From IMG/VR virus record IMGVR_UViG_3300026088_000016, positions 1 to 64,000 of that record: a DNA stretch of 64,000 nucleotides; one strand, given 5' to 3'. Shown one piece after another: positions 3,921 to 12,318 of the stretch. The notes beneath the pieces were generated by a model. It was not told the DNA's origin, did not search any database, and saw only the letters and a list, made by a program, of their open reading frames with translations. The DNA is from a virus. Lineage: Duplodnaviria > Caudoviricetes. Position 1 is the stretch's first letter; every line of letters starts with the position of its first letter. Position numbers and translations under genes: made by a program.

Positions 3921-4225
3921 TCAAATTGGTCAGTGACCCGACCATACACTGCGTAGAACGCAGCCTTGAGACACGCGCGCCGCGCAGCGGGTGTGCCGGG
4001 CATACCGCGTGCGAATCCGTGTTGGCTCAGAATTTTGTCGAGCGGGTCGCACTGGCAAACCATCTCGGCCATCCGCTCCTTGACCTTCGCGGCGTCGTAG
4101 TTGACTGACGCCAGCTCCCACTCAGCGCGAGTGCGCTTGGTTTCTGTCTGCGCAGTGCGATAGCTGAGTGACGCGCAGATTGCGTCAACAGATTCGCCGC
4201 TCAGGTTGTCGGGTGTCTTGCTCAT
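3917..4225 (-). CDS. Hypothetical coiled-coil protein
   Basis: ATG 4225 overlaps the upstream stop. Confidence 0.65.
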   Translation of the reverse strand: MSKTPDNLSGESVDAICASLSYRTAQTETKRTRAEWELASVNYDAAKVKERMAEMVCQCDPLDKILSQHGFARGMPGTPAARRACLKAAFYAVYGRVTDQFD

Positions 4226-4518: not shown

Positions 4519-4786
4519 GGGCGATGGTGAAGGAAAAAGGTTCAACGGGCCGGCTGGTATCAAAGCGGTCGATGAAGGCCGACGCAGCCGGAGGCGTGTC
4601 AACGATTCCAAATGGAAGTCCAAGCATCTCGGAGTTGGAAGAACAGTTGGGCCCGAAGACATCTTTCAGCGCGCGCGTCACTGCGCATTGGCGCGATGGG
4701 AGATAGTTTCCGTTTTTAGAATCGCGAAGCTTCATCGCCTTGTCGATGTGTTGTTGTGTGACGTGGATGATGGTCAGTTTTTTCAT
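4511..4786 (-). CDS. Hypothetical protein
   Basis: ATG 4786 (MKKLTIIHVTQQHID...) overlaps the upstream stop. Confidence 0.65.
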   Translation of the reverse strand: MKKLTIIHVTQQHIDKAMKLRDSKNGNYLPSRQCAVTRALKDVFGPNCSSNSEMLGLPFGIVDTPPAASAFIDRFDTSRPVEPFSFTIAHE

Positions 4787-5169
4787 AGAGTGTCTTTGTA
4801 AGTCCAGACCCAGAACGCGGAACAGTTCACGCAGTAGCGACAGCCGCATTGCTCACCGAGTTTCGCCGCGAGGCGAAGACGTTCTTCAAAGGGCGCCTTC
4901 TCTTCAGCCGGGCTGGTGAGTGGCAGGATGTATTGCTCCACGTCACCAGTGACGTGGCCCTCACGAAGTTTTTCAATCCTCTGGTCTGCGTCTGCGCCCA
5001 TCACGCGAAGCTCGTTCGAGAACTTCTGGAGCGCGAAGTTCATGCGCCCTGCGACGGAGCGCGGTCCCTTAGCATACTTGGGATTGCAGCGCGTCATAAA
5101 TTCCAACGCTCGAAGGAAGATGTCGCGCAGGTCAGATGCGATGAGCTCGGCTTGGTTGTAGAGTTTCAT
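4783..5169 (-). CDS. Hypothetical protein (128 aa) with C-terminal CGCRYCVNC motif
   Basis: ORF track; coupled. Confidence 0.7.
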   Translation of the reverse strand: MKLYNQAELIASDLRDIFLRALEFMTRCNPKYAKGPRSVAGRMNFALQKFSNELRVMGADADQRIEKLREGHVTGDVEQYILPLTSPAEEKAPFEERLRLAAKLGEQCGCRYCVNCSAFWVWTYKDTL

Positions 5170-5714
5170 TGCTTGTGGGTGTCGAAGGTTTCGCGCGTGG
5201 TCTTCAACAGGTGAGAGAGCTTGGCCGACAACTCCGCACTGAACTTGAGATTTGGCACGCGCTGCCCGAGTCTCAGTATGGTGAGCCGAAAAACAGTGCG
5301 CTCTGCGTCCAGCTTCTGCGCGCGTCGAATATCGAGCTCGGCTGCGCGCTCACGTTTTTCACGTCGCAGGGTTTCGAGCTCCTGCCCGGTCTCTTCAGCC
5401 AAGCAGGCGAGCTGGCTGAACTTCCGATGGAGCGCATCCCAGAACTCGTGGTAGGCCGCACGCTTGTCTGCGTCACTGTTCCCATCGCGCGAGATGTCAA
5501 TGGAGTCGAATCCGTCTGGGAAATTCGGCCGCGCGTTGTCATCTGTGAAGGCGTCAAGCTTCGACAGCGCAACGTCGTAACGATACGCCGCCTCTTCCGC
5601 GGTGTCACAGAACGCGCGCAGCGTATGGTAGGTTCCGTTCAGACGGATTTGAAGATACCATCCGGTGTTGTCATTGCGGAGCGTGATGCCGTGGTAATCA
5701 TGGTTCGTTTTCAT
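5166..5714 (-). CDS. AP2/ERF-like DNA-binding domain protein with C-terminal coiled coil
   Basis: YHGITLRNDNTGWYLQIRLNGTYHTLRAFCDTAEEAAYRYD fits the AP2 pattern Y.G.....G.W...I.........F.TAEEAA..YD. Confidence 0.7.
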   Translation of the reverse strand: MKTNHDYHGITLRNDNTGWYLQIRLNGTYHTLRAFCDTAEEAAYRYDVALSKLDAFTDDNARPNFPDGFDSIDISRDGNSDADKRAAYHEFWDALHRKFSQLACLAEETGQELETLRREKRERAAELDIRRAQKLDAERTVFRLTILRLGQRVPNLKFSAELSAKLSHLLKTTRETFDTHKQ

Positions 5715-5941
5715 GTAGGAGTATAAGTCATGGAAGACTAGAATGTCCACCGATAGGCGGAGCCCAATAACACGACGGCTGTTTAAGACTGGGAACATCC
5801 ATTTTCAATTACGTAATATACAATCTAAAATTTTAGAAAGAATAGATACAGAGGTATGTCTAGGCTTTCAAACAGCCTCGGCGTTGGTGCGCGCCAGTTC
5901 CGCGGTTGACATCCGGCGCCCAATCGCCTTCTTTTTCTGTA

Positions 5942-10301: not shown

Positions 10302-10765
10302 TGAATTCTTTTCTTCGAGCAATTGGCGGGTTCGGTCTGGCTCTCGTGATGCTGGTCGGTTGCGTGACCAACCGCACTCCGCTTACGCCGGAGCAAAAGA
10401 TTGACCGTCTCGCTGCGACGCTGCGGATTGCCGTCAGCTCCGCCGTGACGGTCGCCACGGAAGACCGGAAGCCCGAGACGCGCGAGAAAATCGCGCTGGC
10501 CCGGAGTCTGGTCAACGGGGTCCTCACGTCTGGCGACTTGTCGCCGGAGAAGATTGTCGAGTCTCTTACGCCGCTTCTTCGCGACGCGAAACCGGAAGTC
10601 CGGCTCGCTGCGACGACTGCGTTGAGCTTGATGGAAGTTTACTTCATGGATTACGTGGTTCCCCTGCCGGAAGGTGAGGGCGCCGTGAACGCCAAGAAGT
10701 TTTTGAGCGCGGTGGTTGCCGGCATTGACGAAGGTCTAAAGTTGGCGCCCCCGGTAGTTCAGTGA
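10301..10765 (+). CDS. Lipoprotein
   Basis: Signal peptide with lipobox LVG-C; helical mature region. Confidence 0.7.
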   Translation: MNSFLRAIGGFGLALVMLVGCVTNRTPLTPEQKIDRLAATLRIAVSSAVTVATEDRKPETREKIALARSLVNGVLTSGDLSPEKIVESLTPLLRDAKPEVRLAATTALSLMEVYFMDYVVPLPEGEGAVNAKKFLSAVVAGIDEGLKLAPPVVQ

Positions 10766-10807
10766 TACGTTAGTTTAGCTCACCCGCCATGTGCGGGAAG
10801 AGATACC

Positions 10808-10825
10808 GGAGTCGCTCGCGACTCC
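10808..10825 (+). other. GC-rich hairpin before the tRNA cluster
   Basis: GGAGTCGC-TC-GCGACTCC; no U-tract. Confidence 0.5.
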
Positions 10826-10832
10826 AGTCAAT

Positions 10833-10910
10833 TGCGGGGTGGCGCAGTCTGGTTAGCGCGTCAGCCTCATAAGCTGAAGGTCGCCGGTTCAAATCCGGCT
10901 CCCGCACCCA
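10833..10910 (+). tRNA. tRNA with CAT anticodon (Met or Ile2); initiator-like body
   Basis: Full cloverleaf: TGCGGGG/TCCCGCA, GCGC D-stem, TCAGC-CTCATAA-GCTGA, GCCGG-TTCAAAT-CCGGC; CCA encoded. Confidence 0.95.
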
Positions 10911-10928
10911 ACTTCTCGTTCCCCTAAA

Positions 10929-11002
10929 GGGGCGATAGGGTTCATGTGAGTCGAACACGAATTCACGTCACCCTCCGGTGTCCAGCCCGGCGAATTGGCC
11001 CC
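10929..11002 (+). ncRNA. Unidentified 74-nt structured element between two tRNAs
   Basis: GGGGC/GCCCC closing stem, AGGGT/ACCCT arm with inner GTGAGTCG/CGAATTCAC, CCGG/CCGG hairpin. Confidence 0.5.
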
Positions 11003-11024
11003 GATAGCGGCCTGTCCAATTTGT

Positions 11025-11094
11025 GGGCTCGTAGTTTAACGGAAAACACCCGGCTTTGACTCCGGGGACAGCGGTTAGAACCCGTTCCAGCCCG
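11025..11094 (+). tRNA. tRNA-Gln(TTG), non-canonical
   Basis: GGGCTCG/CCAGCCC-G, GTTT/AAAC D-stem, CT-TTG-AC loop, T-loop TTAGAAC; no encoded CCA. Confidence 0.75.
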
Positions 11095-11100
11095 CCTTGT

Positions 11101-11173
11101 GCCACTGTGATGCTTGGAGCCGACTGGAACTCCAAATCCCGGTGACAGGGTTCAATTCCCTGCGGTGGTGCCA
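11101..11173 (+). tRNA. tRNA-Trp(CCA) with a reduced D-arm
   Basis: GCCACTG/CGGTGGT-G-CCA, loop CT-CCA-AA, CAGGG-TTCAATT-CCCTG. Confidence 0.75.
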
Positions 11174-11175
11174 TT

Positions 11176-11455
11176 TTGCGGTAACTCAGACTCAAGGCCG
11201 ACGATGCTTCTCCTCTGCGGAGGATGAATACCCGGCGAAGCGGAGTAGTTATTGAGACCGTGACCGGGTAGTGGGCGGGCCACTCGCGAAACCTGCGATA
11301 GTGCGTTCAAAGAAACTCCGCTTCTCTTTTAGCACGGAAACTCTGTATGACGGAGGCGTGGCAGTGCGCAAGCCACGGCAGGTTGAAAACCGCTCTTGCA
11401 AGGACGGTGAGTATCGAAGAATCCTATGCTGGCTAATACCCAGCTCCATGCACCC
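11176..11455 (+). ncRNA. Large multi-stem pseudoknotted ncRNA of unknown family
   Basis: At least nine helices are visible, including a perfect 10-bp loop-loop pairing of 11237-11246 with 11315-11324; no coupled ORF. Confidence 0.75.
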
Positions 11456-11460
11456 TTTCG

Positions 11461-12318
11461 ATGTCCAAGTCAGCTCTGCTTTGGGTCACTTACAAAAAGG
11501 ACCTGCCGTTCTTCGAGGCCAGCCTACGCTCCTACCAAAAGTTTGCGTCAGGCTTTGCCTACGCAAAAGTCATCGTCCCCCTTGATGACGTCCCGGACTT
11601 CCAGAAAATCTGTGACCCCGCGGGCGTAATCGTCGCTGGAATCGGCGAACCGCCGGGCAAGGGAATGCTCATGCACATGGCGATGCAGATGCTCGGGGAG
11701 ACTCATTTTCCAGCCGACGCCGGCTTCATTTTTCATATCGACGCGGACTGTGTTTTCAATCAGCCCACAACCCCGCAGGATTATCTCCCCGGAGACAAAC
11801 CCATCATCTCTTTCCGAAACTGGGACAAGCTCCTGTCCCGGCCGGTGGAGCAGGATGAAGTGCAGACGTTCATGGGATTCACCGGGCGCACCATCGACTT
11901 CAACCGCGGCGCGTATCTCTGGAAGTTTGCGGCCGACTTCGCACTCGGATTCGCGTCGCAGCGGCAGACCATGACCCAGATGCCCATCGTGCATCGGCGG
12001 GAGACCTACGCGCGGGCGCGGGCAATTATCCAGCGCCGGTTCAACACCGACATCATCTCGCACGTTCTCCAAGGGCGGAACGAGTGGCCGCAGACGTTCT
12101 GCGAGTTCGAGACGCTCGGCACGGTGGCCCATCGTTATTTTCAGGACCGCTATCACTGGCATGAGCTCGACGTGCAGGGAACTTACCCGGTGCGGAACGT
12201 GACGCAGACGTGGTCGCACGGCGGACTCGACGCGACGGTCGAGCATGGCCGGCCACAAATCATTGCGGGGGTTCATCGTTCTCCGCGGGAATACTTCACC
12301 TCGCTGGGACTCCTATGA
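11461..12318 (+). CDS. GT-A-fold glycosyltransferase-like protein
   Basis: Hydrophobic beta-strand followed by DAD (FHIDADCVF); paralog of 12821..13648. Confidence 0.65.
   Translation: MSKSALLWVTYKKDLPFFEASLRSYQKFASGFAYAKVIVPLDDVPDFQKICDPAGVIVAGIGEPPGKGMLMHMAMQMLGETHFPADAGFIFHIDADCVFNQPTTPQDYLPGDKPIISFRNWDKLLSRPVEQDEVQTFMGFTGRTIDFNRGAYLWKFAADFALGFASQRQTMTQMPIVHRRETYARARAIIQRRFNTDIISHVLQGRNEWPQTFCEFETLGTVAHRYFQDRYHWHELDVQGTYPVRNVTQTWSHGGLDATVEHGRPQIIAGVHRSPREYFTSLGLL

Follow-up and report, generated by a model that had tools for sequence, protein, structure and literature searches.

A compact, doubly pseudoknotted RNA with covarying helices at the junction of tRNA array and packaging genes in uncultivated phages

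The window analysed here is a stretch of 64,000 nucleotides from a 72,250-base IMG/VR virus record. Within it, a tRNA array is followed by an intergenic, non-coding stretch (11176-11455), which lies between the end of tRNA-Trp at 11173 and the start of the next gene at 11461 and had been flagged in a first-pass annotation as one ornate RNA of about 280 nt. The genes that frame it are the following.

10833-10910: tRNA-Met (ARAGORN)
11025-11096: odd tRNA with an 8-nt anticodon loop (ARAGORN)
11101-11173, plus strand: tRNA-Trp (CCA), the array unit immediately 5' of the element described below (ARAGORN)
11461-12318, plus strand: first gene of the downstream operon; its product is GT-A-like, 285 aa long, and the DxD motif in it is invariant

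The downstream operon consists, in order, of the GT-A-like gene (a methyltransferase gene in the related loci L010 and L026), a paralog, a gene weakly matching the large terminase, and genes for tail and virion proteins. The L011 counterpart of the gene weakly matching the large terminase (4533-5894, 981 aa) has a match to Hom_end_hint (intein/homing endonuclease). A search of genome contigs found the neighbouring gene on one MAG contig only. ARAGORN assigns 8-nt anticodon loops to the tRNA at 11025-11096 of the window ('ttga') and to a tRNA in L058 (1647-1721, 'ttaa'), with Rfam tRNA scores of 49.5 and 45.1 bits respectively; these tRNAs may read frameshifts or stop codons, or may adopt alternative 7-nt registers.

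The 285-aa downstream protein has 82 metagenome relatives, and about 100 loci were collected from the contigs of these relatives and by alignment-based scans of IMG/VR and JGI metagenomes. A single-protein search of IMG/VR found no related loci, whereas the alignment-based search succeeded. Alignment with the relatives was confined to the 5' part of the flagged stretch (its first half, 11174 to about 11330), and a covariance model of this core (R1) identified exactly one copy per locus in 17 loci, with scores from 154 down to 9 bits, including lineages in which the neighbouring protein is only ~35% identical. These 17 homologous loci comprise 15 distinct sequences and belong to related uncultivated phages from soil- and sediment-type metagenomes. 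A model of the 5' domain built on four sequences (R2) was too narrow, and a further iteration (R3) reached 10 sequences. BLAST of positions 10770-11600 against deposited phages returned tRNA-Met as the sole match.

The conserved unit spans 11178-11324, or about 150 nt, and the rest of the flagged 280 nt is not conserved; the stretch is accordingly not the single large RNA that it had been taken for. In L002 and L004 the conserved part occupies the interval from the tRNA to 9 nt before the start codon, and in the window, L052 and L008 it is followed by an extra 95-135 nt that are different in each. We consider it very probable that 11178-11324 is a real structured RNA. The elements of this RNA and its flanks are listed below.

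11174-11177, plus strand: U-rich junction (UUUU) from the tRNA 3' end to P1, of a type common to other array units
11178-11192, plus strand: 5' strand of helix P1 (P1a 11178-82, bulge 11183-84, P1b 11185-89, P1c 11190-92), from covariation in alignment A10 and the own-versus-foreign duplex test
11197-11236, plus strand: hairpin domain B, with closing helix 11197-200/11233-36 and inner hairpin 11211-15/11220-24 with a UGCG loop, from RNAalifold and pair counts
11237-11246, plus strand: 5' strand of helix K, within P1 (conserved core 11238-45)
11247-11261, plus strand: 3' strand of P1 (P1c 11247-49, bulge 11250-51, P1b 11252-56, P1a 11257-61), from covariation and the duplex test
11264-11284, plus strand: small pseudoknot, in which strand a (11264-66) pairs with a' (11276-78) in the loop of P3 (11270-74/11280-84)
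11290-11307, plus strand: P4, a short hairpin (11294-97/11302-05) with a GAUA/AUAG loop, the weakest helix with 79% of cells paired
11306-11314, plus strand: A-rich single strand before the K 3' strand, found in every member
11315-11324, plus strand: 3' strand of K, which closes the pseudoknot and forms the 3' end of the conserved element (conserved core 11316-23)
11325-11331, plus strand: U-rich junction that follows K, with a consensus in relatives of a single base (mostly A), a C, A or U, and UUU
11332-11455, plus strand: tRNA-like insert outside the conserved RNA, read from the sequence and absent or replaced in relatives

P1 is built of three segments with 2-nt bulges and connects the sequence next to the tRNA with that immediately following the 5' strand of K. 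The first-pass annotation had paired CGGTAACT with AGTTATTG here; the two regions do pair, but in a different register, covariation giving 11178-82 with 11257-61, 11185-89 with 11252-56, and 11190-92 with 11247-49. It had also pointed out the perfect 10-nt inverted repeat 11237-46/11315-24, which is present (a perfect 10-nt pair is expected by chance about 0.04 times in 280 nt, as a rough estimate) and corresponds to helix K, a long-range pairing that covaries in the homologs and is thereby shown to be functional. Searches of IMG/VR with the 10+10 pattern gave no match in exact form and 13 stretches in relaxed form, only 2 of which are true members. Because the 5' strand of K lies inside P1 and its 3' strand outside, ~70 nt further on, P1 and K constitute a true pseudoknot, and are predicted crossing helices that both covary. 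The pairing is thus a pseudoknot across P1 and not the loop-loop (kissing) contact first envisaged. Nor is the K 3' strand held in a conserved hairpin loop, as the helices AAAGA/TCTTT and GTGC/GCAC that were supposed to enclose it have no counterpart in relatives where the start codon follows within 9 nt.

The evidence for these helices comes from comparison of the homologs. RNAalifold recovers the closing helix of hairpin B (11197-200/11233-36) and the long-range helix K. Seven mutually complementary, compensated sequence variants of K are found, among them GAAGCGGAG/CUCCGCUUC in the window, GAGACAGCG/CGCUGUCUC in L058 and AAACGGGAGC/GCUCCCGUUU in L062. P1 was not aligned by MAFFT alone; each member has its own complementary P1 sequence pair. 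When the strands of each member were paired with each other or with those of other members, own strands gave -16.3 kcal/mol for P1 and -15.7 kcal/mol for K, compared with -11.0 and -11.3 kcal/mol for foreign strands, and the own-strand values were not reached in 20,000 permutations for either helix. Pair counts were made on two alignments that were fitted to the model structure and so favour it. In alignment A4 (17 sequences) 91% of cells are paired, compared with 79% in shuffles and 38-45% with slid partners, and in alignment A10 (10 members, P1/B model) the values are 88%, 69% and 28-46%, although the significance is overstated by the shuffle controls since the aligned sequences are mutually related. 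Both sides change in 13 of the 22 pairs of A4, with compensation in 5 of 8 K pairs, and in 10 of the 16 pairs of A10, including 9 of the 12 in P1. Single-sequence folding was no better than that of shuffled sequences (z = +0.55 for 11174-11460 and +0.06 for 11325-11463); as the folding energy is unremarkable, support for the structure rests on the homolog comparison and not on energy.

The smaller helices behave in a similar manner. The GCCG/CGGC helix that closes domain B, the UGCG-loop hairpin within it and AGUGG/CCACU (P3), all of which had been picked out by eye, show compensated changes in the homologs; GC/CG swaps are seen in the pair counts for the B closing helix, and the sequence of the inner hairpin differs in each lineage. 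Strands a and a' covary, with the three variants CCG/CGG, CGG/CCG and GGC/GCC, and of 16 sequences tested, 12 contain the motif, compared with 3.6 in shuffles. Taken together, the predicted helices P1, K, B, a/a' and P3 are all shown by the comparison to stay paired through compensated changes. That the tRNA cluster ends with a structured non-coding RNA containing a pseudoknot, as had been proposed, is thus borne out by the 17-locus homolog collection and by the covariation in P1 and K. Compared with L015, to which it is closely related, the L053 copy (521-686) has mismatches without compensation in K, B and P1, and may be decaying or reflect an assembly error.

Other explanations for the conservation were considered and rejected. 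The 5' domain is 82-85 nt long in close relatives, differing by 1-3 nt; these length changes, which are not multiples of three, rule out protein coding together with the compensated helix changes. A DNA-level site (pac/cos or attP) would not account for strand-specific G-U pairs and compensated changes, which point to an element acting at the RNA level.

The remaining ~125 nt at the 3' side of the flagged stretch are best described as a separate, putative tRNA-like module found in this genome only. This insert has a terminal stem of 7 bp with one C-A mismatch (11332-38/11445-51), adjoined by a T-arm-like hairpin with 5 bp and a 7-nt loop (11428-32/11440-44), and ends with A and CCC (rather than A-CCA), followed by UUUCG and the start codon. 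It resembles the tRNA-like modules of other arrays. The insert was called neither by ARAGORN, even with relaxed thresholds, nor by Rfam at E up to 10, and no homologs were found, the search of IMG/VR with its T-arm-like hairpin returning unrelated hairpins only. The AACCTGC/GCAGGTT helix and all the helices within 11333-11455 involve sequence that every relative either lacks or has in a different form, and are not supported by the comparison.

Scanning against Rfam 15, one of the checks that the first-pass annotation had put forward, gave only tRNAs and weak, chance-level matches to unrelated families (whole window, gathering scores; 10700-11700, E up to 10), with no family matched, GOLLD and ROOL included. 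Twelve homologous loci searched at E up to 1 likewise gave no family match for the element. The impression that hallmarks of tmRNA, RNase P and group I introns are lacking is in agreement with these searches, in which no such match appeared. The element was also rejected as a tRNA or tRNA-like RNA, since it is not called by ARAGORN (with relaxed settings too), does not match RF00005 and has no CCA after K. Set apart from known families by the Rfam 15 models, the element is, on this comparison, a candidate member of a previously undescribed family. A structured-RNA survey of IMG/VR reports 10,006 candidates (PMC10690425).

Several enigmatic RNAs are known from phage tRNA islands. The nearest analogy is with RNAC and RNAD of phage T4, small stable non-tRNA RNAs from the T4 tRNA region with no known role (PMC3014915), which like the element are non-tRNA RNAs of a phage tRNA cluster. 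T4 is however an AT-rich coliphage, whereas the element is known from metagenomes only, and a sequence relation is not expected. GOLLD (RF01998) and ROOL (RF03087) are encoded by phages and prophages near tRNA islands, contain multiple pseudoknots and have no known function (PMC12286853). They share with the element a pseudoknotted fold and proximity to phage tRNA islands (a matter of context, not a criterion for membership), but GOLLD is often longer than 800 nt, compared with ~150 nt for the element, and neither model was matched. The suggestion that this might be a short GOLLD-like variant consequently fails on both model match and size, all of the tests used here being negative.

A different relationship to GOLLD can be envisaged, whereby a giant array RNA of 0.3-1 kb, including tRNA-Met and variable modules, would have the element as its conserved 3' domain. 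GOLLD likewise has a conserved 3' region and a variable 5' region, sometimes with embedded tRNAs, and GOLLD env-38 is located downstream of a Met-tRNA with tRNAs in its linker (PMC12286853). The arrays analysed here contain long unannotated stretches and open with tRNA-Met, which is first in every array whose upstream region was covered and is followed by tRNAs and unannotated units. We nevertheless view a giant RNA as very unlikely: GOLLD and ROOL were unmatched in the window and the 12 loci, the L002 array consists of just two tRNAs and the element within 319 nt, and the modules, with their CCA ends, resemble separately processed units.

Some of these modules are themselves conserved. A ~142-nt array module is 84.5% identical between L010 (1460-1601) and L015 (3822-3960), in which the neighbouring proteins are only ~50% identical, and this suggests a putative second conserved non-coding RNA family in these arrays; such conservation of other modules across distant lineages would also suit a giant array RNA. 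In the window a 115-nt unannotated unit with a CCAAUUU end (10911-11024) lies between tRNA-Met and the next tRNA and shares the short motifs CCCGGCGAA and CGAUAG with the element, and similar units in L004, L008 and L010 end in GAUAG, a few bases and then CCACCAAUUU. Non-canonical tRNA-like modules are found in L033 (579-655), L035 (about 660-720), L060 (1366-1438), L009 (2380-2500) and L085 (1890-1990). They have a 7-bp terminal stem, often with an adjoining T-arm-like hairpin, and a discriminator base with CCA or CCC before a U-rich junction, and are mostly missed by default ARAGORN and by Rfam.

HDV-like theta ribozymes are located directly 3' of gut-phage tRNA genes and are pseudoknotted (PMC10879173), and thus resemble the element in both position and type of fold. 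By analogy, the element could be a ribozyme of a new kind that cleaves itself where tRNA and element meet or immediately past K, maturing the 3' trailer of the tRNA and setting the 5' end of the next RNA, as has been proposed for the theta ribozymes. Its two pseudoknots represent a complexity that is usual for small ribozymes, and 9 of 10 sequences begin P1 with a G, paired as G-C or G-U. We consider the chances of this to be slim, however, as the models for HDV-like, twister, pistol, hatchet, hammerhead and glmS ribozymes were unmatched (window at E up to 10; 12 loci at E up to 1) and no invariant unpaired nucleotides are prominent over all 17 members. The order of strands also differs. The HDV fold runs P1, P2, P3 hairpin, P1', P4 hairpin, P2', with a hairpin after the second pseudoknot strand, whereas the element runs P1, hairpin B, K, P1', hairpins, K'. 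A GGCGAA stretch that recalls J4/2 of HDV is not conserved, being missing in L085, L062 and L009.

The cores of RNase P RNA (P2-P3-P4) and of group I introns (P3-P7) are built around an outer helix that surrounds a hairpin domain together with one strand, the 5' one, of a further helix, whose 3' strand comes after another hairpin and an A-rich strand. The element has the same topology, which we regard as a lead and not as evidence, but it differs from these RNAs in lacking a terminal P1, a bulged U in K, and domains of the specificity or P4-P6 type. An RNase P RNA would be expected to match RF00010 or another RNase P model, with the conserved regions CR-I and CR-V. A search of the phage's own genome with RF00010 at E up to 10 found nothing, although control genomes were detected, and none of the RNase P or group I models (RF00028 among them) was matched at E up to 10. 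As the upstream tRNA ends 4 nt before P1, there is no room for the exon-pairing helices (P1 and P10) of a group I intron.

The size and pseudoknotted fold of the element would be usual for a riboswitch aptamer, and the first downstream genes encode transferases (glycosyl-, sulfo- and methyltransferases), which raises the idea of a riboswitch for a metabolite tied to these enzymes. This is extremely improbable in our view, since riboswitch aptamer models of any Rfam class were unmatched in the window and the 12 loci, the first downstream gene varies by lineage, the spacer is variable and often contains a tRNA, formation of K does not cover the start codon, and there are few invariant unpaired positions.

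The position of the element within the array is more informative with regard to its role. It is always on the tRNA strand, starting 2-8 nt after a tRNA or tRNA-like unit ends, and the sequence before it is typically CCA and then AUUUU. K is followed by one base (mostly A) and then CUUU or AUUU, an arrangement that resembles the 3' terminus of tRNA genes in which CCA is not encoded. With relaxed ARAGORN settings a low-scoring tRNA is found directly 5' of the element in L008, L010 and L015, and directly 3' of it in L058 and L060. The L015 tRNA (3962-4049), just upstream of the element, has the anticodon CUA and would read amber codons. Modules with a 7-bp terminal stem and a CCA or CCC end lie between the element and the first ORF in L033, L035, L009 and L085, and a canonical terminator occupies this position in L062. 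The latter (1953-1990) is an intrinsic terminator with a 9-10-bp G+C-rich stem and six U, located before the first late gene. L010 (1867-1930) and L026 (5834-5840) have near-identical elements that differ by a ~60-nt hairpin insertion between K and the start codon, with CUUU on either flank of the hairpin, and the U-rich junction appears from such comparisons to be a likely insertion hot spot for modules.

The tRNA-type junctions on both flanks, together with the tolerance of tRNAs or a terminator before the late genes, favour the interpretation of the element as a stand-alone gene of the array, for an RNA other than a tRNA, which would be processed like its neighbours and would end in helices. 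We put this reading forward with about even confidence, the function being deduced from position only. The RNA would be made within the array precursor and would be released by host tRNA-processing nucleases at the U-rich junctions that it shares with its tRNA neighbours. The product would be a compact particle in which P1 secures the 5' end and K the 3' end, an arrangement that would confer resistance to exonucleases, and it may act as a folded RNA, by binding or catalysis, around the switch to late gene expression. Against a stand-alone gene, the element has no CCA end, unlike the surrounding tRNA-like modules, and in 6 of 18 loci (L002, L004, L026, L015, L053 and L034) K ends 5-11 nt before the start codon, an arrangement that is possibly ancestral and suits a cis-acting leader equally.

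Such a leader of the late (packaging and structural) operon could operate in more than one manner. The pseudoknot, at the new 5' end after removal of the tRNA, could shield a long mRNA from 5'-end-dependent decay, or K and the U run could constitute a regulated terminator/antiterminator gating read-through from the array into the late genes. The six loci with a start codon directly after K provide the main argument for this, and the element invariably lies upstream of the same operon (GT-A-like gene and weakly matching large terminase) on the same strand. P1, only 2-8 nt from the upstream unit, would be at the very 5' end after tRNA processing, K is G+C-rich and followed by a U-rich run, and no promoter-like site was found between array and gene in the window. 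Since most genes of this phage (starts 7418-29748) are without a Shine-Dalgarno sequence and have A/U-rich sequence before their start codons, the missing Shine-Dalgarno sequence after K is uninformative; this pattern hints at a host that may not rely on Shine-Dalgarno pairing.

A leader is unlikely on balance, although it retains an appreciable probability. At least 8 lineages have an intervening tRNA or tRNA-like module, or in the case of L062 a terminator, between the element and the first ORF, and excision of an intervening module would disconnect the element from the mRNA. The spacer ranges from 5 to 290 nt (26-290 nt in the other 12 of the 18 loci). The same U-rich junction is present after ordinary tRNAs, where a terminator role is impossible, and stabilisation of a 5' end needs only a simple hairpin. 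The stand-alone RNA gene is therefore the reading that we prefer.

The enigmatic RNAs already known from phage tRNA islands are GOLLD, ROOL, the T4 RNAs C and D and the theta ribozymes, and the element matches none of these. It adds a compact, doubly pseudoknotted family with clear covariation, in arrays that are also rich in non-canonical tRNA-like modules. We see a small chance that it represents a novel class of RNA, catalytic or nuclease-blocking, at the boundary of tRNAs and late operon, which would take the form of a self-cleaving or tRNA-processing ribozyme for non-canonical tRNA-like units or of an exonuclease-stopping, knot-like fold; if the element is indeed catalytic it would be a new ribozyme class. 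Its size is suited to direct biochemistry, including cleavage assays, chemical probing and structure determination. As the element stands where the tRNA array gives way to the packaging genes, its role could reveal the way in which these arrays are processed or late expression is established.
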